Virus record (IMG/VR): IMGVR_UViG_2541047870_000005
Source of the DNA: a virus
Taxonomy: Duplodnaviria > Heunggongvirae > Uroviricota > Caudoviricetes
Length of the DNA stretch: 55,336 nucleotides
Reading direction: 5' to 3' (one strand)
Shown here: one piece after another, positions 24,601-43,125 of the stretch
Position numbering within the stretch: position 1 is the first letter of the stretch
Layout of the letters: every line of letters begins with the position of its first letter
The notes under the pieces: model-generated
The model's database searches: none
Told to the model about the DNA's origin: nothing
The model's input: only the letters and a program-made list of their open reading frames with translations
Program-made: the position numbers and the translations under genes

Positions 24601-24627
24601 AATAGGGCAGATACTGCCCTATTTTAA
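24601..24627. terminator. Bidirectional rho-independent terminator between convergent portal gene and cargo operon
   Basis: aaaa-tagggcag-atac-ctgccctat-tttt: 8-bp stem, 4-nt loop, A-tract on one side and T-tract on the other. Confidence 0.7.
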
Positions 24628-25476
24628 CCAAATATTATAATCCAATCTTTCTACGTATCTTGAAATAACGGCTAGAGCAATTGCTTGCCCTACACTTGTT
24701 AGTTCAATTCCTTGATAGTTGCTCTTTGAAAATTTTTCTAAAAATGCAGACACATGAGGGGCAACTAACTTAAGATTTGAAATATACGCACTCTTATCTT
24801 TTATATCAGTCGGATATTTATCCATGAAATAGTCTTCAACATCTATCCCTAAAAAAGTATTCCATGAACAAGCCCCTGCATATTGAATGTGATATATCTG
24901 GGCTTGAGACAAATTAAACCCATTAGTATACATTGGTTCAAGATTTCTAAAATTGCGCTCCAACAAATCCAATCGAACACCATTAACAGGATCTTTGATC
25001 TCAACATTCTTGAGAAGAAAAACTATCGTTATAAGTGATATTTGTTGCTGTGTTAACTTTGGAACTACAGTAACTGCCTCCGTTAAAACTATATCTCTAA
25101 AATCGTCATTGTTATTGGAGACTCGTTCAACTAACAACTGAGAAAGCACATCCATATTAGCTTTCTTTCCCTTCCTGGCTGATGACTTTAATGCCTCAGT
25201 CAATGTCGCCTGAACGTCCGGATCGCAAAATTTATCAATAATCAATCTATCAACGTTTTTTGTTAAATCCGAAACGACACGCTCTTCAAAATCTTTTGCA
25301 TTCTCTTGAGCTGCAGCATAAGCAACATCTTTCAATTTTGGGAACTGATTTTCGAAGAGAATGTTGAATAGTTCTCTAACCTCGGAAAACGACATCCCTG
25401 AAACATTTACATTATTTCCAGCTTGAATTGCATACGAATTATTACCTATTTGTTGCTTTTGTTTATCACTAAACAT
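24619..25476 (-). CDS. Hypothetical 285-aa protein, AT-rich cargo between portal gene and cos-like site; second gene of a two-gene operon
   Basis: Long AT-rich ORF 9 bp downstream of the small membrane-protein gene; no recognisable motifs. Confidence 0.7.
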   Translation of the reverse strand: MFSDKQKQQIGNNSYAIQAGNNVNVSGMSFSEVRELFNILFENQFPKLKDVAYAAAQENAKDFEERVVSDLTKNVDRLIIDKFCDPDVQATLTEALKSSARKGKKANMDVLSQLLVERVSNNNDDFRDIVLTEAVTVVPKLTQQQISLITIVFLLKNVEIKDPVNGVRLDLLERNFRNLEPMYTNGFNLSQAQIYHIQYAGACSWNTFLGIDVEDYFMDKYPTDIKDKSAYISNLKLVAPHVSAFLEKFSKSNYQGIELTSVGQAIALAVISRYVERLDYNIWLK

Positions 25477-25485
25477 ATATCCTCC

Positions 25486-25731
25486 TTATTTTTTATCACC
25501 TGTATTTATACAATCAATTTTAATATCACCGCCAGCCTGGACACCAATTGAATTATCACCAACTGATTGACTCATAGAATTATATTTATTTTTTGTAGTG
25601 ATAAGTAATCCAGCTAAAGCGCTAACTGCAGCCAAAAATGCAACAATAGAATCAAAACCAGGATCCATATAAAGCCATAATCCAGCAATCAATGCCAGTA
25701 TACATGTAATGACTATTGCAAAAATTTTCAT
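25486..25731 (-). CDS. Small membrane protein (81 aa, two predicted TM helices); first gene of the cargo operon
   Basis: Hydrophobic segments IFAIVITCILALIAGLWLY and IVAFLAAVSALAGLLIT; C-terminal motif resembles the N-terminus of the downstream protein. Confidence 0.6.
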   Translation of the reverse strand: MKIFAIVITCILALIAGLWLYMDPGFDSIVAFLAAVSALAGLLITTKNKYNSMSQSVGDNSIGVQAGGDIKIDCINTGDKK

Positions 25732-25785
25732 AAGTTCTCCTTCTAATGGAAGTGGTTATACCGAAAACAATTTCCTTTTACAACC

Positions 25786-25935
25786 ACGCTCAGCGCGCGC
25801 TCGTATCCCCGCCACGCCTGCCCGCTTTGTATAGCGGTTTTCATGCACTCGCATGGCATAAGGGAAACCTTGCCAGAACTGGCGACCCTCAGCGAAAACG
25901 ATCTTCAAACGATCATGCGGATTCATGCAGCATAG
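25786..25935. other. Putative prophage cos (packaging) region
   Basis: GC-rich non-coding segment homologous to 42890-43033; minus strand reads GGCGTGGCGGGGA, matching my recollection of the P2/186-family cohesive end. Confidence 0.5.
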
Positions 25936-26138
25936 ACAGGCACTACTGAGCAATAGCGCTTGAGTTCAGTCAGATATGAGTCCTCAATGTAATACTAATA
26001 CATCTTAACCGTTCATCATTATTCACATCGGGCTATGTAATTACAGAAAAACTTTTCACAATCAATTTTATACTGGATTATTTCAGTTTATTGTATAATT
26101 CATGACGCATGCAAATTGACATTAATTCAGGAGACAAA

Positions 26139-27050
26139 ATGACATTAATTGTAGCTGGTTTCGAAAAAGATGGAACAATTGTTTTTTGCGGGGACTCACT
26201 AATAACAACAAAAGCAAATGGAAGCACTGTAAAATTGACATCGTCCTTTAGAAAAATAATACCACTAGAAATTATTGTGCGAGTACCGGAAATCGATCCA
26301 AGTGGAAAAATCATAAATTACATTGAAAGCCTTTGCCAACATCGCTGCATGATTGCATTTGCAGGAAGCACGCTAGTTTCTCAACATATTATAAATTCTA
26401 TACAAGGTCATCTGAAACAAATAAAATACACATATGATTCTGGCACATATGACTATTCAGAAGGATGCATAAAGGGTGCTGGCTATAAGTTAATAATGGG
26501 TTGTGAAGATAACAAAAGCGTTGAGGAAACCTATTGGAACGAAGATATGTTTGTTGAGCCAGTAAAGAATGCGAACGAACTTATTAATAAAAATTTTCTA
26601 CGCAACGTCTTTAGCCACTGCATACAGAAAACCATGAATGAATTTTACATTAATATTAATGAGGAATTTAATCCAGAGTGGTTTGCAAGCGATTTCATTG
26701 TAGCTCTGTCTTGCTATGAGACTAAAAAAAACCATCTTTTTACCTTTAAAATGGAATTTAATGAGTCAGGGGTCAATCTTATAGAAAAAGAAATTAATAT
26801 CAATGAACTGGCAATAATTGGCATTTCAAGATATAGCGAAGAAATAATTCAAGCATATCAAACTCAAAAAGCGACCCTCAGTACATCTGAAATTCTCAGC
26901 CAAGAGATTACTAAAGCAATCATAGACAATGAAAGCATTGATCTTAGAGAAATAGGAGATCCTGTCGTATTAAAAAAATTCAATCAACATCGTGAATTAC
27001 GTGATGAGCAAAAACACTGGAGGTGCAATACTCCTCGAGAAAACCAATAA
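26139..27050 (+). CDS. HslV/proteasome beta-subunit-like (Ntn-hydrolase fold) protein, about 303 aa, AT-rich cargo gene
   Basis: SD aggag 5 nt upstream of ATG 26139 (ORF track starts at 26109); MTLIVAGFEKDGTIVFCGDSLIT...VKL...IAFAGST...LAIIGISRYSEEIIQAY parallels HslV [21 protein letters not shown]...KK...AGFAGGT...LIAIGSGGPYAQAAARAL (recalled from memory). Confidence 0.5.
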   Translation: MTLIVAGFEKDGTIVFCGDSLITTKANGSTVKLTSSFRKIIPLEIIVRVPEIDPSGKIINYIESLCQHRCMIAFAGSTLVSQHIINSIQGHLKQIKYTYDSGTYDYSEGCIKGAGYKLIMGCEDNKSVEETYWNEDMFVEPVKNANELINKNFLRNVFSHCIQKTMNEFYININEEFNPEWFASDFIVALSCYETKKNHLFTFKMEFNESGVNLIEKEININELAIIGISRYSEEIIQAYQTQKATLSTSEILSQEITKAIIDNESIDLREIGDPVVLKKFNQHRELRDEQKHWRCNTPRENQ

Positions 27051-27464: not shown

Positions 27465-29879
27465 TTAATACAGATCCCGCCACTTATCATCTTCCTGCAA
27501 ACGCTGGTTCCGATAGAAGATACGCAGGCCTGCTCCTGACGGAATACTGCCGCCGCGAAGGAGTAAATCGACCTCTTTCTCGCTGCCATCAAATCCTCTG
27601 GACTTCAGTTCATAGACGAGCTGCTGTCGCTGATGGTCTGTAATTCGCTGTTTGTAGTCTTTACGCCGTTTCGGTTTCACCAGGCGTAACCTTGCAGCCA
27701 GTTCCCGGCGCTCTTTTTTGCTCATACTGTGCAGGTAATCGTGCAACTCCTTGTCATCCATGCGGGTAATGTCCGTTCTGGTATCCCCATCAGCTGATTT
27801 GTCTTTCCCTTGTTGGTTCAAATTTTCAGCAAGGGGACAGTTATTGCCACGAGTCCAAGGGGCGCAAGCGCCCTGGTCGGCTGCCGCCTCCTGAACGTCA
27901 ACGGCCTTACGAACCATTTTCCACTTCACCGCATGAGTGCAGATCTTGCCCTCTGCAATGGGTGACCAGATGCCATAAATACGAATACCGTGATCGCCAT
28001 AGGCGGTCGGTTCTTCGTTGATTTCATAAGCAGTTCTGATGAGGTGATATTTGCGGGGAACCAGTACGCCGCCCTGCTTCATGATGTAGGTGGCAAAACA
28101 ACCAGCATCAGCAGCAGCCAGGATTGCATCAAGGCGCGGGTTATCCAGTACCGGCGCACCTGCTTTTTTGTCCCCCTGTTGCCTTGCCGCCTGACCAGCC
28201 AGCAATCGCAGTTCACGGTAAGCCTGACGCCCCGGAATGCCAAAGAAGCGGAATTGCTGAACACGATGCAGAGACGCCCAGGCATTAACGTATTCAGCGT
28301 TATCACGCAGGGATTTACCCGTTTCCTTGCTGATCTCGCCAGCCAGACCACGCCCGTCAATGTTCTTACTGATGTATTTCGCGATGTAGCTTGTTGGCGT
28401 ACCTTTGCGCGGGTTTATCAGCTCAGACTTAAAGCGTGGTCCCGTGTTATTACCCAGCTCCTCGCGGTCTTCACGAATGGCAAACTTACGCAACAAAGCA
28501 GTAATGGTGCGGCGATCTTTTTTGCGCATAAAACACAACAGATGCCAGTGAACTGTACCGTCATGATGCGGCTCAGCCACCCGCACGCCATACCAGCGCA
28601 ATCCGGCTTTGTGCATCGCCTTACGAAATGCAGCAAACATGCCGACCAGATAATCACTGCTTTGTCTTACCGTCGCATTTGTCCAGGTCGGGTTGGGCCT
28701 GCCGTTATTTAGCGTGGAATGGAAACGTGACGGACAGGTGATGGTGTAGAAAACGGCGCAGTCACCGCGCATTTCCGCGATAAGCTCCAGACCTTTAACA
28801 CAGGCCATCATCTCATTGCGGCGATGCGCAGGGTTGCTGCTGCTGGCGTTTACCACATCCTCCATGTCCAGCGTGTCGCCGTCTTCGTTCACCAGTTCAT
28901 GAGAACGGAAAAACTCCAGTGACTTGCGGCGCTGCTCACGTTTATGCATCACGGCTTCATAGCTGACATAGGGAGATGCTTTTTTGCTGACCAGGCAAAC
29001 AGCACGCAACTGCTCTTCCCGCCATTCGCAACGCATCTTCCACAATTTCCGATACCACCAGTCGGCGCACAGCATACGCGCCAGCGACCCCGGAATGAGT
29101 TCATAGGGCACGGGTTTACGGCGGTTTCTTTTCCGGCGGAGTTGCTCAAACGCAGGCGGTATGACATCCAGTCGCAGGGTTTCTGCTGCCACCTTTTCCC
29201 ATGTCTTGCGGATTTCTTCTGGCTTAACATCATCGGTGGCATACAAATCGCCACAAGCAGCATCAAGGCACATGCTCATATGCGCAGCTACCAAGGTGGA
29301 CAGGCGTTTCACCTGATCCTGACTCATTTCAGGCAGAATCAGCAGGCCATCCAGCCCTTCATGGCTTGCCATAAAGCGAAAAGAAGTGGATAGCTGACTG
29401 TCGCGTACATGCTCCAGCCGTTCCAGACATGGCTTAATCGTCTCACGCAAATAGCGGGAATAAGCCTTTGGCCTGCCCAGGCTGCTGAAGTATTCAATAC
29501 GTTGCATCAGCGGCTTGCTGATATGGGAAGGCTGGGCGTTAACGTCCGCCAGAATGACCATGTCTGGATTAAAACGCTGCTGCTCATGCGCCAGCTTTGC
29601 CCAGCTAATGAGCTTATCCTGCTCCATTTCGCGTTGGACAGGATCACGGGATTCATTAAAGAAATAACGCTCCCAGACCTGAGCACTCAGTGCCTCGCGG
29701 CGCAGCTGTTCCTGCTCGTTATCGGCAGCGTACAGAGTGATCAGGTTTGAAAGCGCAGAAACCGGCGCGACTTCCGCCGGGTCCAGATAAGGGTTAATGG
29801 CCTTTTTCGGGCTGTTCCATGAGAATGCTGCGGCGGCCTCGTTAAAGCCGCTGCAGTTGTTCATATCAGCATGGCTCAT
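27465..29879 (-). CDS. A: Replication initiation protein gpA-like (rolling-circle endonuclease)
   Basis: 804-aa ORF in the position of P2/186 A; contains YIAKYISK-type tyrosine motif. Confidence 0.8.
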
Positions 29880-30733
29880 GCACGCACTCCGTTCACGGCA
29901 GAACTATCCACGCCACGCAAAGGATCAAATCCCACCCAGCAGCGCGCCCCGGAAACAGCGATGATTTCTGTTGCAGATTTACTCTCACCAGCTGCTACGC
30001 CGATGCTGCGTTTTGCCTTGATGTAGTGGTGAGTAAAATTGCGATACAGCGAACGGATCAGGGATGTGTCACTGTTAGAAACAATGACCGGATGTCCTTC
30101 AGATGCTCGATGTTCAAGAACGGATGCCAGGTGATACTGGTCATCTTCAGTGAAACCATCAGTGTGATAGCCGGAAAACGTACCGTCATACGGCGGATCG
30201 CAATACACCACATCCCCCGCCTTCAACATCGCCAGCGTTTCATCAAAGCTGGCGCAGATAAACGTTGCCCGCTGGGCTTTTTCTGCAAATGCGCGAATTT
30301 CTTTTTCAGGTAAATACGGATTTTTATAATTACCGTAGGGAATGTTGAAATGCCCGCTCTTGTTATAGCGATATAAACCACGGTAACCGTGACGATTGAG
30401 ATACAGGAAATATACCGCTTTCATGAAATCAGTAATTTCAGTTGAGTAATTAAACTCCTGCCTTATGTTGTAATAAGCTACCTCCCTGTTTGCGATCTCA
30501 AATAAAACTCTGGCGCGAGATATAAACGATTCACAATCAGCGGCAACCTTTTTATAGAGGTTGATTAAATCAGGATTAATATCCGCAACCAGATAGCTTG
30601 GATAATCCGTCTCCATCATCACCGCACAGGAACCCGCGAAAGGTTCAACCAGTCGCGGGCCAGCAGGAAGGTGTTTTTTCAGTTCGGACATAATTGCGGT
30701 TTTATTTCCCGCCCATTTCAGGATGGTGCTCAT
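29876..30733 (-). CDS. dam: Phage DNA adenine methyltransferase (Dam family)
   Basis: ILKWAGNK...LVEPFAGS...DIN.DLI.LY...DPPY motifs; start taken at the internal Met ([11 protein letters not shown]); the ORF track extends to 30793. Confidence 0.8.
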
Positions 30734-30957
30734 ACAGCACCTCCGTTGTAATGTTTGCCTTTCAGCTCTGCGATTTCCTGACAGGTAATGCAAAGCTGCA
30801 CACCCGGAATGGCACGACGGCGTGCTGGCGGAATTGGCGCTTCACACTCAACGCAAAGCACGCGGGACACGCCCGGTGTTTTGGCACGGGCAGCACGGAT
30901 ATGACGTTGGCGTTCTTCTTCAACTCGCTGCTGTACGAGATCCATTGCATCAGCCAT
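30730..30957 (-). CDS. TraR/DksA-family C4 zinc-finger protein
   Basis: 75-aa ORF with CVEC...CITC four-cysteine motif. Confidence 0.7.
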   Translation of the reverse strand: MADAMDLVQQRVEEERQRHIRAARAKTPGVSRVLCVECEAPIPPARRRAIPGVQLCITCQEIAELKGKHYNGGAV

Positions 30958-31680: not shown

Positions 31681-31929
31681 ATGTTGAACCCGGTTGAAAG
31701 AGAGCGTATAGAGCAACTTGAAAACGAGATCTCCAGTCTTCGCGATGAGGTTGCTGTTCAACGAATTCTTGTTTCAGGTCTGATCCACTCCTTATTTCGA
31801 ACTGACTCAGCAAATCAATCAGCATTTTTTGAGCTCCTCCGCGAAGAATTAAACAAACTTCCTTTAGGTTCGGTTAAACAACAAGAATTCACTCATCTGA
31901 TACAGACACTGATAGATCGTTACCGATAA
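31681..31929 (+). CDS. Hypothetical coiled-coil protein (82 aa) on the strand opposite to the early operon
   Basis: SD-like aggaa upstream of the ATG; competes with minus-strand ORF 31589-31825. Confidence 0.35.
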   Translation: MLNPVERERIEQLENEISSLRDEVAVQRILVSGLIHSLFRTDSANQSAFFELLREELNKLPLGSVKQQEFTHLIQTLIDRYR

Positions 31930-32144
31930 ATATTTCGCCGATAACGTTCAAGAGGTGATGTCTTTATACGCATCACTTCTTGTACTTTTTCACCACGTAT
32001 AAAGGTTCCATCCTTTAGCGTGAAAAAGTAGCTACCATCGCCCGACAACGACGGATAACAACAGAGCAAATCATCTTCAGGTACTGAATAATTCTCCCCT
32101 CTGTAACGAAAGTGATAAACCACTTTATTTTCTGCCGCATACAT
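31920..32144 (-). CDS. Hypothetical early-region protein (74 aa)
   Basis: ORF downstream of cII; overlapping alternative frame 32015-32341 not excluded. Confidence 0.35.
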   Translation of the reverse strand: MYAAENKVVYHFRYRGENYSVPEDDLLCCYPSLSGDGSYFFTLKDGTFIRGEKVQEVMRIKTSPLERYRRNIYR

Positions 32145-32318: not shown

Positions 32319-32828
32319 TCACAGCAAACCGAATGAAGCACCGAGGCCAGTCACGGTATCAACTGCACTCGCCATCGCAGGATTAGCCTGTAAACGGGCC
32401 TGCAATGAAACAGCCGCCAGCGCCATCAGTCGTGTTACAGAGTTAATGCTGCTGATAGCATCACGACGACCGGCACAGGTTTTTACATCGCCAGATACCG
32501 CACCTGCAGCAACACGCCCGATCTCTGCGGTTGCACTCATGACGTAATGTGGCAGTTTCTCTTTTGCCACCTCATTAATCGGTACACATGGCAGACAATG
32601 AATCTGAGCCAGAAAGCCATCGACCAGCGTTGAATCTTCAGTCAGATCGGTAAGCAACCAGATTTCTGACGGCGTGAGCTGATGTGATTGTTCCGGGTTA
32701 AGCTTGTTACGCAGCGTCTGGACGTTCATTCCCGCGCGTTCTGCCAGCTTCGCCATGTTGTGACGCAGTGCGAAAGCCCGACAGGCTTCATCAAAATGCG
32801 GATGTTTGGAAATCTTGTAATCAAACAT
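32319..32828 (-). CDS. cII: CII-like establishment regulator (186 type)
   Basis: 169-aa ORF downstream of apl, divergent from cI, same size as 186 CII; HTH-like NVQTLRNKLN. Confidence 0.65.
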   Translation of the reverse strand: MFDYKISKHPHFDEACRAFALRHNMAKLAERAGMNVQTLRNKLNPEQSHQLTPSEIWLLTDLTEDSTLVDGFLAQIHCLPCVPINEVAKEKLPHYVMSATAEIGRVAAGAVSGDVKTCAGRRDAISSINSVTRLMALAAVSLQARLQANPAMASAVDTVTGLGASFGLL

Positions 32829-32860: not shown

Positions 32861-33103
32861 TTACTTACCAACAATGACGCGGAAGTTGGAATGACCGAGG
32901 GATTCACGGACCTGATCAGTTTTGTACATCAGATAACGCAGGCTTACGCGGCCTTTGTTTTTTTCTTTCTTGACCATGTACTTAGCGAGTTGGCCATGGT
33001 GAATTTTTTGGTAAACAGACCCACGGGAAATACCTTCCCATTCAGCGAATTCAGCAGGCGTAGCCATCTCTTTTGGTACACGAATTGAAATATCTGTGCT
33101 CAT
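32861..33103 (-). CDS. apl: Apl/Cox-like excisionase-repressor
   Basis: 80-aa ORF, first gene of the rightward-type operon facing cI; HTH-like AEWEGISRGSVYQKI. Confidence 0.65.
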   Translation of the reverse strand: MSTDISIRVPKEMATPAEFAEWEGISRGSVYQKIHHGQLAKYMVKKEKNKGRVSLRYLMYKTDQVRESLGHSNFRVIVGK

Positions 33104-33210
33104 AGTGCAGTATCCTTAGATTTAAGTTAGTTTTATCTCGTTTTAGCTCACTTTTCGGGATTCCCCTTGCGGGATAATCGCGATACTACGATCACTTTAA
33201 GTGGTCGTCA
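33104..33210. promoter_or_regulatory. Lysis-lysogeny switch region (divergent promoters/operators between apl and cI)
   Basis: 107-bp intergenic region between divergent regulator genes; positional inference. Confidence 0.45.
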
Positions 33211-33855
33211 ATGGAGTATTTGATGATCAACATTCAGGCAGGTCCCAATACGGGAGGTAGAGAGGCGATCGAAAGATTGCTTAAGGCATATGGATTCAGC
33301 ACCAAACAAGCACTAGCTGACCATTTAAAAATTTCAAAAAGCACTATGGCAAACAGAAACTTACGAGATAGCTTTCCTGCTGAGTGGGTCATCCAGTGTG
33401 CACTTGAAACAGGGGTTTCGCTGCTATGGCTAGCCACAGGCCAGGGTGAAATGTTCACTTCAGAAGATCGAGAAAAAAATCCCGTAAACGAGTCAAACGT
33501 CACGCTTCGACCACTTTCCAAAATCGTTGCCCCCAGCATTAAGCAAGCCGAATTGAAGAATGGGGAGTTGAATAACGAAGGGGAAGTCTTGCTTGATAGC
33601 AGCTTACTGGACAGTGAGCCCGGCAATTCATTGTTTATAAAAACGTCTACTGACTGCTTTGTAGTGGATATATCTGTCAAACAGGTTAGCAATGGTTACT
33701 GGCTTGTCGATATTGATGGGGTGAAAAGCATCGTCAAGATTGCCCGAATACCAGGCAACAGAATTGTTGTTCACCAGGACGACTCATCCTTTGAGTGTTC
33801 TGTTGATGATGTGGAAGTTGTCGGGCGAGCCATTAAAGTAATCAAGAGTATTTAG
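33211..33855 (+). CDS. cI: CI-type immunity repressor (186-like, N-terminal HTH plus C-terminal domain)
   Basis: 214-aa ORF upstream of int, HTH motif STKQALADHLKISKSTMANR; true start may be the Met at 33223. Confidence 0.75.
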   Translation: MEYLMINIQAGPNTGGREAIERLLKAYGFSTKQALADHLKISKSTMANRNLRDSFPAEWVIQCALETGVSLLWLATGQGEMFTSEDREKNPVNESNVTLRPLSKIVAPSIKQAELKNGELNNEGEVLLDSSLLDSEPGNSLFIKTSTDCFVVDISVKQVSNGYWLVDIDGVKSIVKIARIPGNRIVVHQDDSSFECSVDDVEVVGRAIKVIKSI

Positions 33856-33857
33856 TC

Positions 33858-34877
33858 ATGACCATCAGGAAACAGCCGAACGGAAAATGGTTGTGTGAGT
33901 GCTACCCTAACGGGCGGGACGGCAAGCGCGTGCGCAAGCAATTTGCGACGAAAGGCGAAGCCGTAGCATTCGAAAACTTCACCATGGATGAAGTAAACAA
34001 AAAACCATGGCTGGGGGAAAAGGAAGATCGGCGGCATCTGTCAGAAGTGATAGAGCAATGGCACTCACTATACGGGCAGACGCTCGCAGACCCCAAACGC
34101 CTGATGGCGAAACTTAGAATTATCTGTAATGGCCTGGGCGACCCTATCGCCTCAGAGCTGACCGCCGGAGATTTTACGAAATACCGTGAAGCGCGATTAA
34201 AAGGTGAAGTGCGAAATGAAGATGGCGCGCTTATGTCGCCAGTTAAGCCCCGAACGGTAAACCTCGAACAACGCAACCTATCATCAGTTTTTGGGACTCT
34301 GAAAAAACTGGGCCACTGGTCAGCCCCTAACCCGCTCGCCGGTCTGCCAACATTCAAAATCGCAGAGGGTGAACTGGCATTCCTGACCCCAGAAGAAATT
34401 AAACGCCTGCTGGATGCCTGCGCGGATTCTCAAAGCCCCAGCCTGCTGATGATTGCAAAAATATGCCTAGCTACTGGTGCGCGGTGGAGTGAAGCAGAAA
34501 ACCTGCAGGGCCATCAGTTATCAAAATACCGCATCACTTATACCAAGACGAAGGGCAAGAAAAACCGTACCGTGCCGATATCTCAGGATCTGTATGACGA
34601 ACTCCCCAAGAACAGAGGGAAGTTATTCACCCCATGCAGAAAAGCTTTTGAGCGTGCAGTTAAACGAGCTGGTATCGACTTGCCAGAGGGACAATGTACC
34701 CACGTCTTGCGCCATACATTCGCCAGTTACTTTATGATGAATGGAGGGAATATTCTTGTACTAAGAGATATTTTAGGCCATTCAGATATAAAAATGACTA
34801 TGGTCTATTCTCATTTTTCACCTGAGCATCTTGAAGATGCTGTAACAAAAAACCCTTTATCATCACTAGCGATTTAA
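33858..34877 (+). CDS. int: Tyrosine integrase (P2/186 Int family)
   Basis: 339-aa ORF after cI; C-terminal catalytic-region motifs (HVLRHTFAS, LGHSDIKMTMVYSH). Confidence 0.85.
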   Translation: MTIRKQPNGKWLCECYPNGRDGKRVRKQFATKGEAVAFENFTMDEVNKKPWLGEKEDRRHLSEVIEQWHSLYGQTLADPKRLMAKLRIICNGLGDPIASELTAGDFTKYREARLKGEVRNEDGALMSPVKPRTVNLEQRNLSSVFGTLKKLGHWSAPNPLAGLPTFKIAEGELAFLTPEEIKRLLDACADSQSPSLLMIAKICLATGARWSEAENLQGHQLSKYRITYTKTKGKKNRTVPISQDLYDELPKNRGKLFTPCRKAFERAVKRAGIDLPEGQCTHVLRHTFASYFMMNGGNILVLRDILGHSDIKMTMVYSHFSPEHLEDAVTKNPLSSLAI

Positions 34878-34881: not shown

Positions 34882-36093
34882 ATGAAAATTAATAAAATTA
34901 GTACCACAGATTATGTAGCAATGCTTAATGAAATATTATTCGAAATAGAGTCCAAACCACTATTACAAGCTCCTTATCTCGCGGGAAATAATATCATTAA
35001 AGATTTTAACAATAGGGTTAAATGTTACCTAGAAGTCATAAACAAGATTTACAGTAAAAACCCTCACAACCTTGTAATTCGTGAAATAAAATCAAAAATA
35101 AAAAGCACAAAAACACTCTCGGATAAAATTTCAGAAACACTTAGATTATATTTAAACGGTAAAATCAAAGAATCTTACCTAACATTTGATCACGCTATCA
35201 CCAAGACAAATATAAATGACCACATCTATAATATGTCCGTTCCATTAAGTGTATTTTGTCATCCTGGAAAACCTCTATTTCGCGTAAGAAAAAGCGATCA
35301 AATAATAAAAGAAAGGCGTGATATCTTTCATATTCCTTTTTCTAAACGTTATCTTGTGAATGCACAAAGATACTCAGTCTCAGGCCTTCCTTGTTTATAT
35401 TTAGGAACCTCTATTTTTGTATGTTGGCAAGAAATGGAAAAACCAGACTTTGATAAATTATATGTATCTTCATTCATCACAGAGTCTGGTTCATCACATA
35501 GAATACTTAACCTTGGTTATAATTTGAGATCAGCATTGAACATAAACACCTTAGCATGGCTGTTAGATAATGATACTGAAGGAACTATGAATAGGGTCAT
35601 TTCGAACTTAATTTCCTGGCCACTTGTGTTAGCCTGTAATTATACAAAACAACATAAAAACTCTAGTTTCAACCCTGAGTACATAATCCCCAACCTTCTT
35701 ATGCAATGGCTCAGCAGCAATGAAAATAAGGGCATAGCCGGTATCGCTTATCGCACGACTAAAATTCTCAATCAAAAAGATAGTGATATTGGTATTAATA
35801 TAATCATGCCACCTAAAATGGATAATATTTTGGATTCTGGTTATGATTACTGCCCACACTTACTAAATATATTTAAATTTACCAAACCTGTTTCATGGCA
35901 AGTATTTAGCACTTTAAACGTCAAGACCGATGGTATGGATGAAGATAGACTCATAATGGGAGGACCAACTCCAGCATCAGGTACAATTGAAGATTTTGAT
36001 GAATCGCTAGTGGAATATTACAATAATACCTCATTCAAAAAAGTTCAATTGTTAATTCATAAAATGATGAAGCATGATTATCTTGAGCCTTAA
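34882..36093 (+). CDS. RES-domain-like protein (403 aa) with about 150-aa N-terminal extension; AT-rich cargo
   Basis: Segment RYSVSGLPCLYLGTSIFVCWQE reproduces the spacing of the RES-domain core (R-W-N-x-P-G-x-P-x-L-Y-x-x-x-S...E) as I recall the consensus. Confidence 0.5.
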   Translation: MKINKISTTDYVAMLNEILFEIESKPLLQAPYLAGNNIIKDFNNRVKCYLEVINKIYSKNPHNLVIREIKSKIKSTKTLSDKISETLRLYLNGKIKESYLTFDHAITKTNINDHIYNMSVPLSVFCHPGKPLFRVRKSDQIIKERRDIFHIPFSKRYLVNAQRYSVSGLPCLYLGTSIFVCWQEMEKPDFDKLYVSSFITESGSSHRILNLGYNLRSALNINTLAWLLDNDTEGTMNRVISNLISWPLVLACNYTKQHKNSSFNPEYIIPNLLMQWLSSNENKGIAGIAYRTTKILNQKDSDIGINIIMPPKMDNILDSGYDYCPHLLNIFKFTKPVSWQVFSTLNVKTDGMDEDRLIMGGPTPASGTIEDFDESLVEYYNNTSFKKVQLLIHKMMKHDYLEP

Positions 36094-36126: not shown

Positions 36127-37080
36127 ATGCAGTTACAAAAAACCTCTAACTCCATTATAGAAATAGGAAGTGATCTGATGAATAACATCATCTATACAAA
36201 CGAACAATATGAAATCGAAAATCTAAGTATAGCCCTGTATGCAATTTTCGATAAAATAAAAGAAAGGATTTCCATCGCCGAAGAATCTAACATTTACACT
36301 ATCAGAGATGTTGGTCATAACTCGGAATCTCAAGTTTGCAAAAACACTTTTAATAAATTAACGCAATTTTTTGATTCAAACATTCTTTACATCCAAGACT
36401 GTGAAGTCTTAATTTCATATATAACAGAGTGTAGTTTGGAACTCTCTGTTATAGCGCAACAATTTTATGAAATACTCTGGAGCGATTTGTTAATAACCAC
36501 ACCAGACAAAGATTTTAAAGGGATTTTAGTAGCAAAATCGCCAAAAACAAGCTTGCTATTTTCTTTGTTAAGCATGCTATTTATAAAAATGAATAGTTTG
36601 TTTGACTACGTTACTAAAATCTCCTTTGAATTATTAAAGAGTAACTTCCCAATCTCTAAATACAAGAAATTAATATCCAAAAATAAATTATACGGCAACT
36701 ATAAAGAATTAGTTTTTTCGACAACAACGGATACCATATTTGAAAATAGCAATTTTATAAACACTGTAACATCATTACGAAATCATATAATTCACCACGG
36801 TTATATAGATGAGCACCCAAAGGTATATGTTGAAGTGGAAAATGGCATTGCATTTGGGAGATTTGTACTATTCCCCGATTTGAATGAGAGTGGAGGACTG
36901 GAAAATTGCATTAACAGAACTTTATTCTATTCAAAAGAAACAAAGATTGATGAAAAATTACCTGACTTAATTAAGGAATGCCAAATTAAAGTAATTAACT
37001 CGTTGAAGGTACTAATTAAAGATCATGAAGCATTAGAAGATTCAAGAAAGACTGGCGGCACTTTGGCGGCAGAGCATTAA
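36127..37080 (+). CDS. Hypothetical 317-aa protein with HEPN-like Rx4H motif (Abi-like candidate); AT-rich cargo
   Basis: Motif LRNHIIHHGY; gene lies 33 bp downstream of the RES-like gene on the same strand. Confidence 0.45.
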   Translation: MQLQKTSNSIIEIGSDLMNNIIYTNEQYEIENLSIALYAIFDKIKERISIAEESNIYTIRDVGHNSESQVCKNTFNKLTQFFDSNILYIQDCEVLISYITECSLELSVIAQQFYEILWSDLLITTPDKDFKGILVAKSPKTSLLFSLLSMLFIKMNSLFDYVTKISFELLKSNFPISKYKKLISKNKLYGNYKELVFSTTTDTIFENSNFINTVTSLRNHIIHHGYIDEHPKVYVEVENGIAFGRFVLFPDLNESGGLENCINRTLFYSKETKIDEKLPDLIKECQIKVINSLKVLIKDHEALEDSRKTGGTLAAEH

Positions 37081-37165: not shown

Positions 37166-37210
37166 ATGTAGGAATTTCGGACGCGGGTTCAACTCCCGCC
37201 AGCTCCACCA
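37166..37210 (+). other. ssrA: 45-nt 3' terminal fragment of tmRNA gene ssrA ending in CCA (integration core / att copy), not a complete ssrA
   Basis: atgtaggaatttcggacgcgggttcaactcccgccagctccacca matches the E. coli ssrA 3' end; sequence upstream does not continue the ssrA match. Confidence 0.8.
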
Positions 37211-37245
37211 AATAATGATCCGGATACGTCCGGTGAAGTACAGAA

Positions 37246-37394: not shown

Positions 37395-38594
37395 GTGGCA
37401 CGGACAACACGCCCCCTGACCAACACCGAAGTTCTGCGCGCGAAAGCGTTAGAGAAGGATCTAACGCTGCATGATGGCGATGGGCTTTTCCTGATAGTGA
37501 AAACTAGCGGCAAGAAACTCTGGCGCTTTCGCTATCAACGCCCAGCAACAAAACAGCGGACTATGATGGGACTTGGTGCTTTTCCTGCCCTTTCTCTTGC
37601 TGATGCCCGAGGGTTAAGAGCAGATTACCTTGCCCTATTAGCCAACGGAATCGACCCGCAAATTCAAGCTGAAGTTGCAGAGGAACAGCAGCAAATCGCT
37701 CTGGACAGTATTTTTTCGACGGTCGCCGCTAACTGGTTCCAGCTCAAAAGCAAAAGCGTTACCCATGATTACGCTAAAGATATATGGCGTTCACTGGAAA
37801 AAGACGTATTCCCCACCATCGGGGAGATCCCTGTCCAGCAAATCAAAGCCCGAACACTGGTTGAAGCCCTTGAACCGATCAAAGCTCGTGGGGCGCTGGA
37901 GACGGTGCGCCGGTTGGTGCAGCGTGTTAACGAGATAATGATTTATGCCGTAAATACTGGTCTTATTGATGCCAATCCAGCATCAGGCATTGGAATGGCC
38001 TTTGAGAAGCCAAAAAAACAAAATATGCCTACGTTGCGCCCAGAAGAATTGCCTATGCTGATGCGTTCTCTCGTCATGTCAAATTTGTCTGTTCCGACTC
38101 GCTGCCTCATTGAGTGGCAACTCCTGACTCTAGTTCGTCCTTCTGAGGCTTCCGGTGCTAGGTGGGCTGAGCTCGATCTCGATGCAAAGCTCTGGACTAT
38201 CCCAGCTGAACGAATGAAGGCTAAGCGGGAACACATAGTCCCTCTATCTCCTCAGGCATTAGAGATTCTTGATGTGATGAAGCTAATCAGTGCCCATCGT
38301 GAACATGTTTTCCCGAGTCGGAATGACCCAAAGCAACCAATGAATAGCCAGACGGCAAATGCTGCTTTAAAAAGGATTGGATTTGGTGGTAGATTGGTTG
38401 CTCATGGATTGCGTTCAATTGCCAGCACCGCATTAAATGAAGCGGGTTTTAATGCAGATGTAATTGAGGCTGCTCTTGCACATAGTGATAAAAATGAAGT
38501 GCGCAGAGCATATAATCGTTCAACTTACCTTGAGCAACGAATAGGACTTATGAATTGGTGGGGCCAAAAAGTGTACGAGCGCAATCAATATTAG
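37395..38594 (+). CDS. P4-type tyrosine integrase (IntA-like); GTG start
   Basis: 399-aa ORF about 185 bp downstream of the ssrA core, as for intA next to ssrA in E. coli K-12; integrase-like N-terminal region. Confidence 0.85.
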   Translation: MARTTRPLTNTEVLRAKALEKDLTLHDGDGLFLIVKTSGKKLWRFRYQRPATKQRTMMGLGAFPALSLADARGLRADYLALLANGIDPQIQAEVAEEQQQIALDSIFSTVAANWFQLKSKSVTHDYAKDIWRSLEKDVFPTIGEIPVQQIKARTLVEALEPIKARGALETVRRLVQRVNEIMIYAVNTGLIDANPASGIGMAFEKPKKQNMPTLRPEELPMLMRSLVMSNLSVPTRCLIEWQLLTLVRPSEASGARWAELDLDAKLWTIPAERMKAKREHIVPLSPQALEILDVMKLISAHREHVFPSRNDPKQPMNSQTANAALKRIGFGGRLVAHGLRSIASTALNEAGFNADVIEAALAHSDKNEVRRAYNRSTYLEQRIGLMNWWGQKVYERNQY

Positions 38595-38623
38595 TTAACT
38601 TGTTATACATGGAGATATAGTTC

Positions 38624-39082
38624 ATGGAGAATAATCTAGATAATTTATGTTATGAATTCTTTAGAGAGTTTTCACGTTATGAATATTGCCTTAAGGCATG
38701 TGGACTTCATCATAAAATAAAAGATGCTAAAGCGAACTGGGATGAGTATGCAAAGCAAGTTTCTGAAATCATAAATAACACAACTGATCCAGAGCTAATT
38801 GCTGCTATCACCTACTTTAAAGAACACCCACCCAAAAAACAAATCATAGAAGATGACTCTTTAGTTTGGGATGATTCTTTACCACAAGAAAAAGATTTAG
38901 CAAAATTTCTTTTTTTGTTAATCCGCCGTGTAAGAAACAATCTTTTTCACGGAGGAAAATTTAACGGGAAATGGTTTGAACCTGAACGTAGTGAGGCGTT
39001 ACTGCAACATGGCCTTGTTATTTTGAGGCATTGCGGCACAAGGCATAGTGAAGTAAGCAAAGCCTATTCTGGAATAGCCTGA
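38624..39082 (+). CDS. Hypothetical 152-aa protein with HEPN-like Rx4H motif
   Basis: Motif RRVRNNLFHGG; AT-rich; first cargo gene after int. Confidence 0.45.
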   Translation: MENNLDNLCYEFFREFSRYEYCLKACGLHHKIKDAKANWDEYAKQVSEIINNTTDPELIAAITYFKEHPPKKQIIEDDSLVWDDSLPQEKDLAKFLFLLIRRVRNNLFHGGKFNGKWFEPERSEALLQHGLVILRHCGTRHSEVSKAYSGIA

Positions 39083-39096
39083 GCGGTGTTATAAAA

Positions 39097-39143
39097 GAGA
39101 AGTTTTTGTTACTGGAAGAATGATAAAATTCAAAAACTTCTCT
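39097..39143. terminator. Long inverted repeat between convergent genes (candidate bidirectional terminator)
   Basis: agagaagtttttg ... caaaaacttctct, 13-bp arms, 21-nt spacer. Confidence 0.4.
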
Positions 39144-39174
39144 ATTGATTGTTTAAAAAATCGTCTAAATAAGA

Positions 39175-41757
39175 CTATTGTACCCAAAAGTTACGAAATA
39201 TATTATGTATTTCGTTTTGAACTAATTGTGGCAGTTCTTCCATGTCAACTTTATTGTCCTTAATCCAATTAATGCATTCTTCCTCATCTAAACTATCATT
39301 AGGAATAAGCTCTGAAATCATTACAGCAGCAGTTCTTGAAAAGCCAAGCCCTATTAGTGAAATCTGAGTTTTTAAACTTACACCCAGTTCTAAATAAACA
39401 CCGATATCTTCAACATCTTTTGCTAAGTCTGTGCGATCTATCGAAAGATAAAAGCTTTTTAATAAATCATTATAACATCCTAAAAGCCTTGGAGCTTGAT
39501 AGCGAGCGATCTCTTCAACATCCTTCATAACCCCTCGTATTAAAGTCGCTTCTTTGAAAACAATATTTTTCTTTTTGTTATATCTTATTCTATCCGAGAT
39601 CAATCTTGCTAGGGGATAACCTTTCATCCACTTGGAAACTAACAAGGCCTGTACGTAAGCTCCTTTTGAATTATAACCTAGCTTCTTACTCAGAGTATCA
39701 CTAATTCTAGAGAATGCGGATACATATGAATCTAACGCATCATTACTACCAGGTTCAGAAAGCAGTAATCTCTCTACAGGTTTGTTTGTATCCCGCGAAA
39801 ATCTATCCCAAAGGTTTTGCATTAAAAGCGGGCTTATACCAGGATGCCGCACAACCAATTCGTGTGGAAAAGTTAAAGAATCAAAAACATCAAATATTGC
39901 TTCATTTAAAACATCGATATTTTTTATATTGTACTTTTCCATGTAAGGATTATTATCCAAGCCATTATAAAAATAAAATGATGAACATAAATAACTAAAT
40001 AGACTCTGGAGATTAGGATTCCGCTCAGACATACCAAAATGATGCTCTGAAAAAATATAGGAAACCAACTTATCCATGTCATGGGAAATAGCATCCGTGG
40101 CGCGAGTTATAAATATATTTTTTTTGGTTTTTGGAGGCTCTCCATTCCAAATTTTTTCATTGTCGCTATCGATGCAGATGACATTACCTTGGAATTCTTT
40201 TCCCCAACGACCAGCTCTGCCAGCAAGATTCCAAAAATCCTCTTCTCGCATCGGGGTTGAATTACCCTTTTTAGGGCCTCTTATAAAAATATTTTTACAA
40301 GCCATGTTTACGCCCTCAACTAAAGTTGAGGTACAAATTAAAAAATCAATCTTACCTTTACTAAACAATCGTTCAATCTCGCCCTTTATTATTAAAGGCA
40401 TGTTGCCATAATGAAAAGCGACTCTCTTTTTTAGAGTGCGATTTAATGCGAAATTTTTATGTATAATTGTCTCACTAAGCTCAACGAGAGCTAAAATTTC
40501 TTCATCCTCAGTCTCATTTTCTATACTTGCAGATATTAGCTTGGAAGTAGATTCTGCTTCAGCGGCTCCATTTACGTAAACTACGTTACCAGAAGCCCCC
40601 TTACCTAAACAAAGAGCTACAAAAGGCAATCTTTTACTTTCAGGAGATGGTGCATTTTCTAAAGAAAAGTTTCCTAACTCGCGTTTTTCACCGTTTGCAA
40701 AATAATACATCAACCAATCTTTGGTCTTGCGTGGTTTTTGTTCTACCCATATTAAATTTTGATTAACTGTAACATAGTCACTTTTTATAGTTCTTTTGTT
40801 TTTTAATATTGGAGCATCACTGAGCAATATTTCAGGATTTAAGGTGAAAGGACTTGCAAAGATAACTTTTGAATCAGGGTTATTTAGACAAGTCAGTTCA
40901 ATTACATGTTGAAGAATAACACCTCTTCCACCATCACCGATCTTGTGTGCTTCATCAACAACTAAGACGTCTATCTTTGGAATTTGTGAGAAATGATTGT
41001 AGAATAAATTTAATCTTTCCTGTGTAAATATGAAGACATTAGATTTTTCGCTCTGGTATACATTACTCAATGGTAGTGTCTGAATATTAACTATATTTGT
41101 TAAATTAGGATCCAAACGTTTTTGCAACTCAGAATATACTTCTGAAATCAATGCCCTTGTTGGTACGATATAAATAACTAAGCAATTCTTATTTCTTTTT
41201 ACAAACTGCTCCACCCAAGATTCCAGGATAAATGATTTTCCTACAGAGGTAGGAGCAGAGACACTAACCCATGAGTTTTCTTGTACCGCATCCCAAAACT
41301 CTGATTGAAACCTATTAGCATAAATATGCTTATCAGCATCTATTTCAATTGTATATAGAATTTTTCTTTTAGTTAGTTCTAACTGAGCCTTTAAGGGTAA
41401 TCTTTCTTCGAAATCAGGGTTAAGATACCCCCTATTTTCAGCAAGTTGTATTGCTGGATTATTAGATAATGAATCAAGAATTAATGCAGCACTATCTTTT
41501 CTTGCTTCACTTTTTTCATTCAATAAGCAATACTGTGCAATCCTTAAGGCTGCATCTTGGCATTTCTCATCACTTGAGAAAGCCAAAGAACTAGCACATG
41601 TTAAAAGATAGCCGACATCCTCAGAACTAATCTGTGGGATTACATCTGATTTTAACTCTGGAAATTGATCTTTTATCGAGTTAGCGACTAATGCCTGATA
41701 TTTTCTTAAGAATCCTTGATTCTTAATCAACCACCCAGATAAATCTCGCAACGACAT
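39175..41757 (-). CDS. hamB: SF2 DExH-box helicase, HamB-like (Hachiman-type defence helicase candidate)
   Basis: 860-aa AT-rich ORF; Walker A APTSVGKSF and motif II VLVVDEAHKIG; start overlaps the stop of the upstream gene. Confidence 0.55.
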   Translation of the reverse strand: MSLRDLSGWLIKNQGFLRKYQALVANSIKDQFPELKSDVIPQISSEDVGYLLTCASSLAFSSDEKCQDAALRIAQYCLLNEKSEARKDSAALILDSLSNNPAIQLAENRGYLNPDFEERLPLKAQLELTKRKILYTIEIDADKHIYANRFQSEFWDAVQENSWVSVSAPTSVGKSFILESWVEQFVKRNKNCLVIYIVPTRALISEVYSELQKRLDPNLTNIVNIQTLPLSNVYQSEKSNVFIFTQERLNLFYNHFSQIPKIDVLVVDEAHKIGDGGRGVILQHVIELTCLNNPDSKVIFASPFTLNPEILLSDAPILKNKRTIKSDYVTVNQNLIWVEQKPRKTKDWLMYYFANGEKRELGNFSLENAPSPESKRLPFVALCLGKGASGNVVYVNGAAEAESTSKLISASIENETEDEEILALVELSETIIHKNFALNRTLKKRVAFHYGNMPLIIKGEIERLFSKGKIDFLICTSTLVEGVNMACKNIFIRGPKKGNSTPMREEDFWNLAGRAGRWGKEFQGNVICIDSDNEKIWNGEPPKTKKNIFITRATDAISHDMDKLVSYIFSEHHFGMSERNPNLQSLFSYLCSSFYFYNGLDNNPYMEKYNIKNIDVLNEAIFDVFDSLTFPHELVVRHPGISPLLMQNLWDRFSRDTNKPVERLLLSEPGSNDALDSYVSAFSRISDTLSKKLGYNSKGAYVQALLVSKWMKGYPLARLISDRIRYNKKKNIVFKEATLIRGVMKDVEEIARYQAPRLLGCYNDLLKSFYLSIDRTDLAKDVEDIGVYLELGVSLKTQISLIGLGFSRTAAVMISELIPNDSLDEEECINWIKDNKVDMEELPQLVQNEIHNIFRNFWVQ

Positions 41758-41758
41758 T

Positions 41759-42700: not shown

Positions 42701-42889
42701 GAGTAGGTCCTTGCATATTTTATTTTCCTCATCATTTGCAATATATACTTATTTCAATAGCTTGCAACATTTTTACTCGACAATGATACTTACACCACAC
42801 TCGCTGCTTAAAATCATTGTTATCGCTTTAACGTGATAAACGATTCTTTCAATCAGGTACTCATTGAAAGTTAAAAGTTACTTTGACCA

Positions 42890-43033
42890 TACACAGCGTG
42901 CGCTGCCCCGCCCGCCTGCCCGCTTCGCTTAACAGACTGGTTTTCATGCACCCCGTAAATCGTCTCAGAAGCCACCACACAAGGGCTTTCGCGTCAAAAA
43001 TGGCGCATGAGACTCATGCGTTTTCATGCGCTA
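42890..43033. other. Putative satellite cos (packaging) region
   Basis: GC-rich non-coding segment homologous to 25786-25935; minus strand reads GGCGGGCGGGGCAGCGCACGCTG, resembling the P2/P4 cohesive end as I recall it. Confidence 0.45.
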
Positions 43034-43125
43034 TAGATATGCACTCATACGCCTTCAGGCCAGCCAGGGAAAAGGCGTAAAAAATCCCGGTACTGGACCG
43101 GGACTACGTGGGCGTATTTTGCTAA

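Follow-up and report, generated by a model that had tools for sequence, protein, structure and literature searches.

An orphan Dam-family adenine methyltransferase gene directly upstream of replication gene A in a Fels-2/RE-2010-type prophage of Escherichia coli

A prophage gene for a Dam-type adenine methyltransferase, carried by a host that already methylates GATC, raises the question of whether the second enzyme acts on the same site, when it would be made, and whether it serves the phage or changes the methylation-dependent regulation of the host. We analysed such a gene, here dam, in a window of 55,336 nt (the whole stretch of DNA studied, to which all coordinates refer). In the reading that we hold to be highly probable, judging from sequence comparison, dam would be part of the early lytic operon in a Fels-2/RE-2010-type prophage and encode an active, GATC-specific orphan Dam that methylates phage DNA. 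The steps that lead to this reading, and the other readings that were weighed, are given below.

The gene occupies positions 29876..30733 on the minus strand and encodes an orphan N6-adenine DNA methyltransferase of 285 aa that belongs to the Dam family (D12 class, alpha-type), as assigned from profiles, structures and an exact database match. The open reading frame has 285 codons and runs from an ATG at 30733 to a TGA at 29878..29876, so that the coordinates given in the initial annotation for a prophage-borne Dam-family gene were exact. The protein matches Pfam PF02086 (MethyltransfD12) over profile positions 1-253 of 253 (E=2e-75, 254.3 bits, cutoff 22), the NCBIfam model TIGR00571 'dam' (320.8 bits, cutoff 114.85), PHROG 56 'DNA methyltransferase' (E=7e-121) and the E. 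coli Dam (EcoDam) structures 2g1p/4gol (E=6e-71). An identical protein is present in NCBI, under the name 'DNA adenine methylase', and in UniRef, on 67 contigs, and the best 120 protein-search matches all carry generic 'DNA adenine methylase' names. A longer frame of 305 aa, starting from a TTG at 30793, was rejected in favor of the ATG at 30733 because GGAGG is located 7 nt upstream of this ATG and all database homologues agree with it; the dam genes of Fels-2 and RE-2010 are annotated with the same start. The score against the equivalog model for the housekeeping Dam (NF008152 / PRK10904) was 279.6 bits, which is below the cutoff of 441. Together with the location in a prophage early operon, this makes the gene a phage paralogue rather than the host dam. 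The gene is of an already known type, real but ordinary.

We compared the enzyme to EcoDam (PDB 2G1P, 4GOL), with which it shares family and fold and 45% identity over 269 aligned residues, and to 104 Dam relatives having 70-97% identity to it. The protein is collinear with EcoDam across residues 4-260. Motif I, the AdoMet-binding element of the FxGxG type (F32-A-G-S35; 30629..30640, minus strand), was assigned from sequence and from the alignment to EcoDam F35-x-G37, and the cofactor-binding acidic residue D51 aligns with EcoDam D54; F32, G34 and D51 are invariant in the 104 relatives. The catalytic motif IV, DPPY, which the initial annotation had reported, is present at residues 179-182 (30188..30199, minus strand; reverse complement GAT CCG CCG TAT) and aligns with EcoDam D181-P-P-Y184, so that the motif and HMM check proposed there was run and passed. 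Among the 104 relatives, D179, P180 and Y182 are each conserved in 103 and P181 in 102. The target-recognition hairpin region (residues 114-137, corresponding to EcoDam 116-139; 30323..30394, minus strand) was located from the alignment and falls between motif I and DPPY, in the linear order of the alpha type. The phosphate contacts R95, N126 and N132 of EcoDam are conserved along with motif I and DPPY. Differences from EcoDam include the loss of 5 residues following DPPY and a poorly conserved C-terminal tail of 25 aa, as well as the gene context, which is aroK-aroB-damX-dam-rpe for EcoDam and a phage lytic operon here.

The dN/dS of dam is 0.11 in the comparison with RE-2010 and 0.125 in that with Fels-2, and the gene is under purifying selection. 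These values bear on the reading in which dam is a decayed remnant, annotated as a methylase with its function lost. The left end of the prophage adjoins an IS3-family element and the window holds one att copy, which would suit a defective prophage. However, the full-length reading frame is identical to the protein found on the 67 contigs, all motifs are intact, and dN/dS is ~0.11; we regard decay as exceedingly improbable.

We then compared the residues that determine the target site. In EcoDam, K9 and Y138 read the first base pair of GATC, L122 and P134 the third, and R124 the fourth, with Y119 intercalating and N120 making a base contact (PMC4417163). Six of the seven GATC-reading residues listed are kept, as K6 (for K9), Y117 (Y119), L120 (L122), R122 (R124), P132 (P134) and Y136 (Y138), and all six are invariant or nearly so in the 104 relatives. 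From this conservation we infer that the enzyme is GATC-specific. EcoDam N120 is replaced with R118, which is invariant in the relatives, and EcoDam R137 with N135, a position fixed as N or H among them; these two substitutions could make the fidelity or the flanking-sequence preference differ from that of EcoDam. In a broader reading, the clade-wide N120R and R137N/H changes would shift the site itself or its flanks (for example to GATN or NATC) and provide a wider protection from restriction. The fixation of both residues in the clade agrees with such a shift, as do the recognition of the first base pair, known to be lax and to vary within the Dam family (PMC4417163), and the very relaxed specificity of some prophage adenine methyltransferases (PMC7556043). 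On the other hand, the enzyme keeps R122, the counterpart of the residue that chiefly discriminates the fourth base pair, along with L120 and P132 for the third and with K6 and Y136 for the first. By alignment, the N120 position is occupied by a third kind of residue in the GATC-specific T4 Dam, so that this position does not determine the site, and the title of the publication on the retron-Ec67 prophage homologue attributes 'Dam methylase functions' to it. An altered or relaxed specificity is quite unlikely in our estimate.

The neighbors of dam bear on both its status as an orphan and its probable mode of expression. Directly upstream is a TraR/DksA-type C4 zinc-finger gene (30730..30957, minus strand; PF01258 E=4e-11; TIGR02419 67.1 bits, cutoff 59.7; PHROG 54), and directly downstream is replication gene A, which encodes a rolling-circle nickase of 804 aa (27465..29879, minus strand; PF05840 E=1e-127; PHROG 91 'nicking at origin of replication'). 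No cognate nuclease was found in the flanking genes, and two unannotated cargo ORFs located 3-5 kb away gave no nuclease or defence match in Pfam and PADLOC; the cargo genes of the prophage vary among relatives that all keep dam. The best PADLOC model for the protein is 'oMTase' (orphan methyltransferase; PDLC03729, 360 bits). Hence the gene is, as initially described, an orphan methyltransferase without a cognate restriction endonuclease alongside. Its reported position next to A was also borne out, with dam directly upstream and on the same strand. Its stop overlaps the start of A in an ATGA (29876..29879, minus strand), and A has its Shine-Dalgarno, GGAG, within dam at a distance of 9 nt; another ATGA (30730..30733, minus strand) joins the stop of the TraR/DksA-like ORF to the start of dam. 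A consensus scan revealed neither promoter-like nor terminator-like signals above chance in the interval from TraR to A (2 promoter-like sites vs 8.2 expected; 8 terminator-like sites vs 6.4 expected). In the record of phage 186, the homologous operon is driven by pR, repressed by CI and translationally coupled into A. The order here is pR - apl - cII - small ORFs - DUF5347 - DUF2732 - TraR/DksA - dam - A, with a small convergent ORF (31681..31929) within the operon. Altogether, these features strongly suggest that dam and A are co-transcribed.

The prophage itself is, on sequence evidence, an element of the Fels-2/RE-2010 type (Felsduovirus) of the P2 family, integrated at E. coli ssrA. Its attR (37166..37212, plus strand) is the 47-bp 3' end of ssrA, matching the joined attP halves of Fels-2 at 47 of 47 positions and the 3' end of ssrA at 45 of 45; the rest of the prophage carries P2-family structural genes. 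RE-2010 (F361_gp10) has the closer Dam, with 97.5% amino acid and 97.2% nucleotide identity, while that of Fels-2 (STM2730) is 73.5% identical. Both phages share with the present prophage the order cII, fil, DUF5347, DUF2732, DksA-like, dam, A and the attachment at the 3' end of ssrA; they differ from it in having a Salmonella rather than an E. coli host and in their cargo genes, and the small convergent ORF inside its early operon sets the present prophage apart as well. In addition, RE-2010 has a short repressor where the present prophage has an immunity region of the 186/Fels-2 CI type. The dam-A arrangement had been likened to that of some 186/Fels-2-like phages. This is correct for Fels-2 and RE-2010 but not for 186 (Eganvirus), which has no dam and carries an exonuclease-like ORF, a DUF5405 ORF and the PAPS-reductase-like orf84 in the slot. 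PsP3 and P2 also have other genes in place of dam. Since P2, 186 and PsP3 grow without it, dam is an accessory gene.

The probable source of the early transcript that includes dam is a pR-like sigma-70 promoter (TTGACG, 17 nt, TAGTAT) predicted by the consensus scan at 33183..33211 on the minus strand, ~2.4 kb upstream of dam. It is placed relative to cI and apl as in 186, and Fels-2 shares it down to a GATC in the spacer. It faces a 186-type CI repressor gene (33211..33855, plus strand), which matches PHROG 4 and PHROG 34054 'transcriptional repressor' and has a homologue named 'phage repressor protein CI' by PGAP. By analogy with 186, CI is expected to keep pR off in the lysogen and, probably, dam with it, and an extrapolation from 186 would limit dam expression to the lytic phase.

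This arrangement bears on the proposal of lysogenic conversion, in which the prophage Dam would be on in the lysogen and would alter host GATC methylation and what depends on it, such as phase variation, mismatch repair and replication timing. The host has a small number of GATC sites that normally escape its Dam and that could become methylated by an extra enzyme; transient dam expression could also come from spontaneous induction in part of the population. Overexpressed Dam has strong effects on the host, for example triggering a retron toxin-antitoxin through methylation of msDNA (bioRxiv 10.1101/2020.06.22.160242). Against this, dam is deep in the operon of a pR-like promoter opposite a 186-type cI, the 186 counterpart of which is repressed by CI, and in the part of the operon that precedes dam the consensus scan gave no promoter-like hit on the coding strand. 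Moreover, GATC is methylated in this host anyway, and the prophage enzyme is predicted from its recognition residues to act at that very site. Lysogenic conversion is quite improbable. The statement in the initial annotation that the enzyme can alter methylation-dependent regulation of the host is not supported by this context, that of a probably CI-repressed operon of the 186 type in a host having its own GATC-specific Dam, and a lasting change of host methylation in the lysogen is unlikely. For a lytic-phase GATC-specific enzyme in a dam+ host, the comparison of methylomes between a lysogen and a cured strain is predicted to give a null difference, the host Dam masking the prophage enzyme, and would therefore be uninformative.

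A further reading gives dam a regulatory or structural role, in which the gene chiefly brings ribosomes to the start of A, or GATC methylation times phage expression or replication. The ATGA overlap and the Shine-Dalgarno of A inside dam are consistent with the first form, and the 186 record states that translation of A requires translation through the end of the ORF upstream of it. The unrelated genes that fill the slot in P2, 186 and PsP3 suggest that the slot itself matters. However, coupling alone would not hold the catalytic and recognition residues invariant, nor keep dN/dS at ~0.1 over 285 codons. The second form would draw on the pR-spacer GATC common to the present prophage and Fels-2, but this GATC is known from two independent sequences only and may belong to an operator. 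With respect to replication, the predicted ori (nick region) is inside gene A at 27830..27880 on the minus strand, located through homology with the ori annotated in P2 and in 186. In both phages the rep_origin position corresponds to A residue 675, at about 27857 of the window, and the predicted ori motif ...GTGGCAATAACTGT is common with TGTCAATAACTGT of P2 and 186. GATC is absent from the predicted ori, the nearest sites being at 27945 and 27995; Dam control of the origin was rejected, since the predicted ori has no GATC within ~90 bp. We consider the regulatory or structural reading very unlikely.

The role of dam that we prefer, an active GATC-specific orphan Dam acting on phage DNA in the lytic phase, could be realized as follows. 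When CI repression is lifted, or upon infection, dam would be transcribed from the pR-like promoter, and the ATGA overlaps would link its translation to that of its neighbors in such a way that the methylase is produced alongside the rolling-circle initiator A. The phage Dam would methylate the ~116 GATC sites of the phage fast and fully, where replication outruns the scarce host Dam, and both packaged and replicating phage DNA would be fully methylated instead of hemimethylated or unmethylated. In the current host, full methylation may then keep the DNA from being nicked by MutH and bound by SeqA; in the next, it may shield the DNA from GATC-cutting, methylation-sensitive nucleases. High-copy DNA makes the host enzyme limiting, and an anti-restriction function has been ascribed to phage Dam (bioRxiv 10.1101/2020.06.22.160242). 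On the other hand, the known hosts of Felsduovirus-type phages are all dam+ enterobacteria, which leaves the selective benefit of a second GATC methylase a matter of argument. The prophage has 116 GATC sites (3.4 per kb), with an observed/expected ratio of 0.76 that is mid-range for 4-base palindromes and close to the 0.64 found outside it in the window; the sites are neither purged nor enriched by this comparison, and their frequency is uninformative.

Other phages also encode orphan GATC methylases, namely T4/T2 Dam, P1 Dmt/Dam, HP1 Dam and VT-2/933W Dam (PMC7556043). Like the present enzyme as we read it, these N6-adenine methyltransferases are encoded by phages, act at GATC and are made in lytic growth, and roles in anti-restriction and, for P1, in packaging have been proposed for them. 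P1 dam sets off the retron as host dam does (bioRxiv 10.1101/2020.06.22.160242). The relationship in sequence is distant, with T4 Dam 22.5% identical to the prophage Dam and P1 ~35% over the Dam domain, and the genomic contexts differ. A pac-type GATC cluster is unexpected for a cos-packaging phage of the P2 family. What phage Dam enzymes do 'is still not well understood', according to PMC7556043. A case closer to ours, to the extent that an annotation note and paper titles tell, is retron Ec67, where a Dam homologue is likewise on an E. coli prophage of the P2/186 family. In the Fels-2 record, the annotation of STM2730 refers to similarity with 'retron EC67 DNA adenine methylase', the title of Hsu, Inouye and Inouye (1990) assigns 'Dam methylase functions' to the retron-Ec67 element, and that of Dodd and Egan (1996) identifies the element as a 186-related prophage. 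The prophage cargo slots examined within the window contained neither a retron nor a reverse transcriptase. The retron Ec67 Dam has 285 residues and is ~44% identical to the E. coli enzyme; this would fit the 285 aa and 45% found here.

The dam gene is present in 1239 of 5426 complete E. coli genomes, flanked by TraR/DksA and A in every E. coli match listed. About 23% of the complete genomes would thus have a second, inducible GATC methylase, which bears on the phenotypes of dam mutants, on Dam-sensing defence systems such as retrons, and on the methylation state of phage DNA in phage therapy or cloning. Otherwise the gene is a routine accessory of a very common prophage family of E. coli, Salmonella and Klebsiella, and matters little past its correct annotation. 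An unlikely extension is that the phage Dam clade, having Arg at N120 and Asn or His at R137, is a kinetically distinct GATC methylase that is faster or less sensitive to flanks. If so, induction would methylate host GATC sites that are normally unmethylated and erase epigenetic states of the host such as those of phase variation, and the phage Dam could be a signal sensed by retron-type abortive-infection systems. Finally, the slot upstream of A may possibly be an exchange point for DNA-modification genes coupled to A, occupied by Dam here and by the PAPS-reductase-like ORF in 186.

The dam gene, whose position was given exactly in the initial annotation, lies on the minus strand at 29876..30733 and runs from an ATG at 30733 through 285 codons to a TGA at 29878..29876. 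The profile check of its product agreed with the proposed Dam-family membership. The product covers the whole of the D12-class N6-adenine methyltransferase profile of Pfam (PF02086, E=2e-75), scores 320.8 bits for TIGR00571 (NCBIfam 'dam' subfamily; cutoff 114.85), and matches both PHROG 56 'DNA methyltransferase' (E=7e-121) and solved structures of E. coli Dam (E=6e-71). The reported DPPY motif is present at residues 179-182 (30188..30199, minus strand; reverse complement GAT CCG CCG TAT), and motif I (F-A-G-S) was read in the same frame at residues 32-35. Since the product misses the equivalog cutoff (279.6 vs 441 bits) and the damX-dam-rpe context is absent around the gene, the prophage dam is not the housekeeping orthologue.

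The prophage Dam is 45% identical to EcoDam, the housekeeping E. coli enzyme, and the two are collinear from residue 4 to 260. In EcoDam, R124 is the main discriminator and contacts the guanine of the fourth GATC base pair, with Y119 intercalated between A and T. Contacts to the third base pair come from L122 and P134, recognition of the first from K9 and Y138, and a hydrogen bond to a base from N120 (PMC4417163). In the alignment, R124, Y119, L122, P134, K9 and Y138 correspond to R122, Y117, L120, P132, K6 and Y136 of the prophage protein, and the one change among these GATC-reading positions is R118 in place of N120. Among 104 aligned family members (relatives at 70-97% identity), all seven of these prophage residues show no or almost no variation, as do DPPY, F32, G34 and D51. 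The clade as a whole differs from EcoDam by substitutions (N120 to R; R137 to N or H), by the loss of five residues after DPPY and by a 25-residue C-terminal tail that is poorly conserved. The N120 change is no argument against GATC, because T4 Dam, which is likewise GATC-specific, aligns yet another residue there. Comparison with RE-2010 and Fels-2 (both Salmonella phages of the genus Felsduovirus) gave dN/dS values of 0.11 and 0.125 respectively, which shows purifying selection on dam. Homology thus points to a product that would be an active GATC methylase.

The prophage origin of the gene and its location beside replication gene A were both confirmed: a P2-family prophage surrounds dam, and the 804-aa P2-type replication protein A (27465..29879, minus strand; PF05840, E=1e-127) is encoded directly downstream, as gene 8 of an early operon. 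A consensus scan placed a pR-like promoter (TTGACG, 17 nt, TAGTAT) at 33183..33211 on the minus strand. It is followed on that strand by an apl/cox-like excisionase gene (32861..33103), cII (32319..32828), a 74-aa ORF (PHROG-4312), DUF5347 and DUF2732 genes in that order, and a TraR/DksA C4 zinc-finger gene (30730..30957), the sixth of the operon and directly before dam. The 186-type cI (33211..33855) and int (33858..34877) are on the plus strand, divergent from the operon as in phage 186. The gene order is the same as in RE-2010 and Fels-2; dam is 97.2% identical to that of RE-2010 in DNA, and its product shares 97.5% identity with RE-2010 Dam and 73.5% with Fels-2 STM2730.

The TGA of the TraR/DksA gene and the ATG of dam overlap as ATGA, with GGAGG 7 nt upstream of dam; the TGA of dam and the ATG of A overlap in the same manner, with GGAG 9 nt upstream of A. 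The consensus scan found no coding-strand promoter between the TraR/DksA gene and A, where its sole terminator-like site was one weak hairpin with a 5-bp stem, and hits of this kind in the scanned region were at chance (8 terminator-like sites vs 6.4 expected; 2 promoter-like sites vs 8.2 expected). In the phage 186 record, the homologous operon is pR-driven and CI-repressed, and translating the ORF upstream of A to its end 'appears necessary for translation of A protein'. From the ATGA overlaps, the scan result and the 186 record we infer that the pR transcript would carry dam together with A, that dam would be silent in a stable lysogen, and that its translation would feed ribosomes into A. 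The spacer of this pR-like promoter contains a GATC (33190..33193) within a block (AAAGTGATC) that is conserved with Fels-2 and has diverged flanks. The GATC could belong to a CI operator or make up a promoter element sensitive to Dam, and is no more than a lead because just two independent sequences are compared.

The likeness of the dam-A arrangement to 186/Fels-2-like phages held for Fels-2-type phages and failed for phage 186, which has no dam. We compared the slot between the TraR/DksA gene and A in the window (29876..30957), 186 (L004, 4667..6748), PsP3 (L008, 5930..6890) and P2 (L009, 2549..3045). In 186 the interval from the DksA-like gene to A holds an exonuclease-like ORF, a DUF5405 ORF and the PAPS-reductase-like orf84; the PsP3 slot contains gp35, which is unrelated and 174 aa long, and that of P2 only Orf83/DUF5405. 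A published comparison also describes P2 as having no methylase of its own (PMC3091744). The slot is a variable cassette site among P2-family phages, occupied by Dam in the window, Fels-2 and RE-2010. The last slot ORF overlaps the start of A in the window prophage, 186 and P2, those checked; gp35 of PsP3 ends ~220 bp before A.

On high-copy DNA host Dam is limiting, and an anti-restriction function is attributed to phage Dam enzymes (bioRxiv 10.1101/2020.06.22.160242). Dam, made alongside the rolling-circle initiator A, would keep fast-replicating phage DNA fully methylated, and this is the most economical explanation of its role. Full GATC methylation would shield DNA from GATC nucleases that are sensitive to methylation, from nicking by MutH and from binding by SeqA. 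The prophage has 116 GATC sites (3.4 per kb), with an observed/expected ratio of 0.76 vs 0.64 in the rest of the window, neither purged nor enriched. A link of Dam to the replication origin was rejected: the annotations of P2 and 186 put the origin at ~27857, and no GATC occurs closer to it than ~90 bp. Expression of Dam is a known liability, as the Retron-Sen2 toxin is triggered by overexpressed host Dam or plasmid-borne P1 dam via msDNA GATC methylation (bioRxiv 10.1101/2020.06.22.160242). The initial annotation also held that the enzyme can alter methylation-dependent regulation of the host, which is unsupported since dam lies in the lytic operon and host Dam has the same predicted specificity. 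For the same reasons, comparing the methylomes of a lysogen and a cured strain is not decisive, and a null is expected even with a fully active enzyme.

The description of dam as an orphan methyltransferase stands, with no nuclease gene adjoining it and PDLC03729 'orphan methyltransferase' as its best PADLOC model (360 bits). Two low-GC (~0.40) cargo ORFs of unknown function, 285 aa (24619..25476, minus strand; PHROG 19542) and 313 aa (26109..27050, plus strand; PHROG 25719), lie 3-5 kb from dam and had no significant Pfam or PADLOC match. The content of this cargo slot (24619..27050) varies in RE-2010, Fels-2 and E. coli strain 504237, and dam is kept in all three. The two ORFs occupy a hotspot, bounded by the portal gene on one side and the A region on the other, that carries old/tin in P2 and an AIPR protein in RE-2010. 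They could be defence or superinfection-exclusion genes not yet characterised.

NCBI and UniRef already contain the exact 285-aa sequence, named 'DNA adenine methylase [Escherichia coli]' and seen on 67 contigs. Of 5426 complete E. coli genomes, 1232 carry the gene at >=80% coverage (1239 with any match). Every record listed has 'DNA adenine methylase' between 'TraR/DksA family transcriptional regulator' and 'replication endonuclease'. Relatives at 70-97% identity occur in Salmonella, Klebsiella, Enterobacter, Citrobacter, Cronobacter and others, and 56 deposited phage genomes carry close ones. The gene is thus a known, very common accessory gene of Felsduovirus-type prophages, with nothing unusual in its sequence, context or distribution. 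The Fels-2 record annotates its own dam by similarity to 'retron EC67 DNA adenine methylase'; the EC67 element was reportedly later recognised as a 186-related prophage. The 90%-identity cluster holding Dam (protein of window 29879..30733) also takes in 804-aa replication endonucleases, one being its representative. Some public ORFs fuse Dam to A (P0072, P0074: PF02086 + PF05840) or to late control D (P0023, P0024, P0092: PF02086 + PF05954). These fusions are probably frameshifts, assembly errors or deleted prophage remnants; in clustering, they link families that are unrelated.

An 82-aa plus-strand ORF of unknown function (31681..31929, PHROG 26925) lies opposite the operon in the cII-DUF5347 interval and is followed by a terminator-like hairpin with a 13-bp stem (31949..31982). 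RE-2010 lacks this insert, and in strain 504237 the fil gene adjoining its position is annotated as a pseudogene. The ORF may be a moron transcribing against pR. Between int and attR are two plus-strand cargo ORFs with only PHROG matches of unknown function: 403 aa (34882..36093, PHROG 7835; homologue of RE-2010 gp01) and 317 aa (36127..37080, PHROG 31026).

The flanking chromosome is the E. coli ssrA locus, and a 47-bp match at 37166..37212 to the Fels-2 attP core, the 3' end of ssrA, marks attR. The window contains neither a second 47-bp ssrA att core nor a tmRNA gene. The left end of the prophage, beside an ogr-like gene (3505..3768), abuts an IS3-family element (orfA 3101..3406, orfB 2238..3104), past which come genes for a ParA-like ATPase (951..2006) and a further rve-type transposase (1..867). 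Rearrangement may have affected the attL side, and the prophage may have lost the ability to excise. Directly past attR is a P4-like satellite (37395..49320) with integrase, ogr/delta-like, psu-like, icd-like and primase-helicase genes. As cargo it carries a complete Hachiman defence system (PADLOC; HamB 1135 bits, HamA 450 bits), with minus-strand ORFs in this region at 39175..41757 and 41759..42700. Helper-type prophage and satellite thus form a tandem at ssrA; in strain 789 the satellite alone lies beside ssrA.
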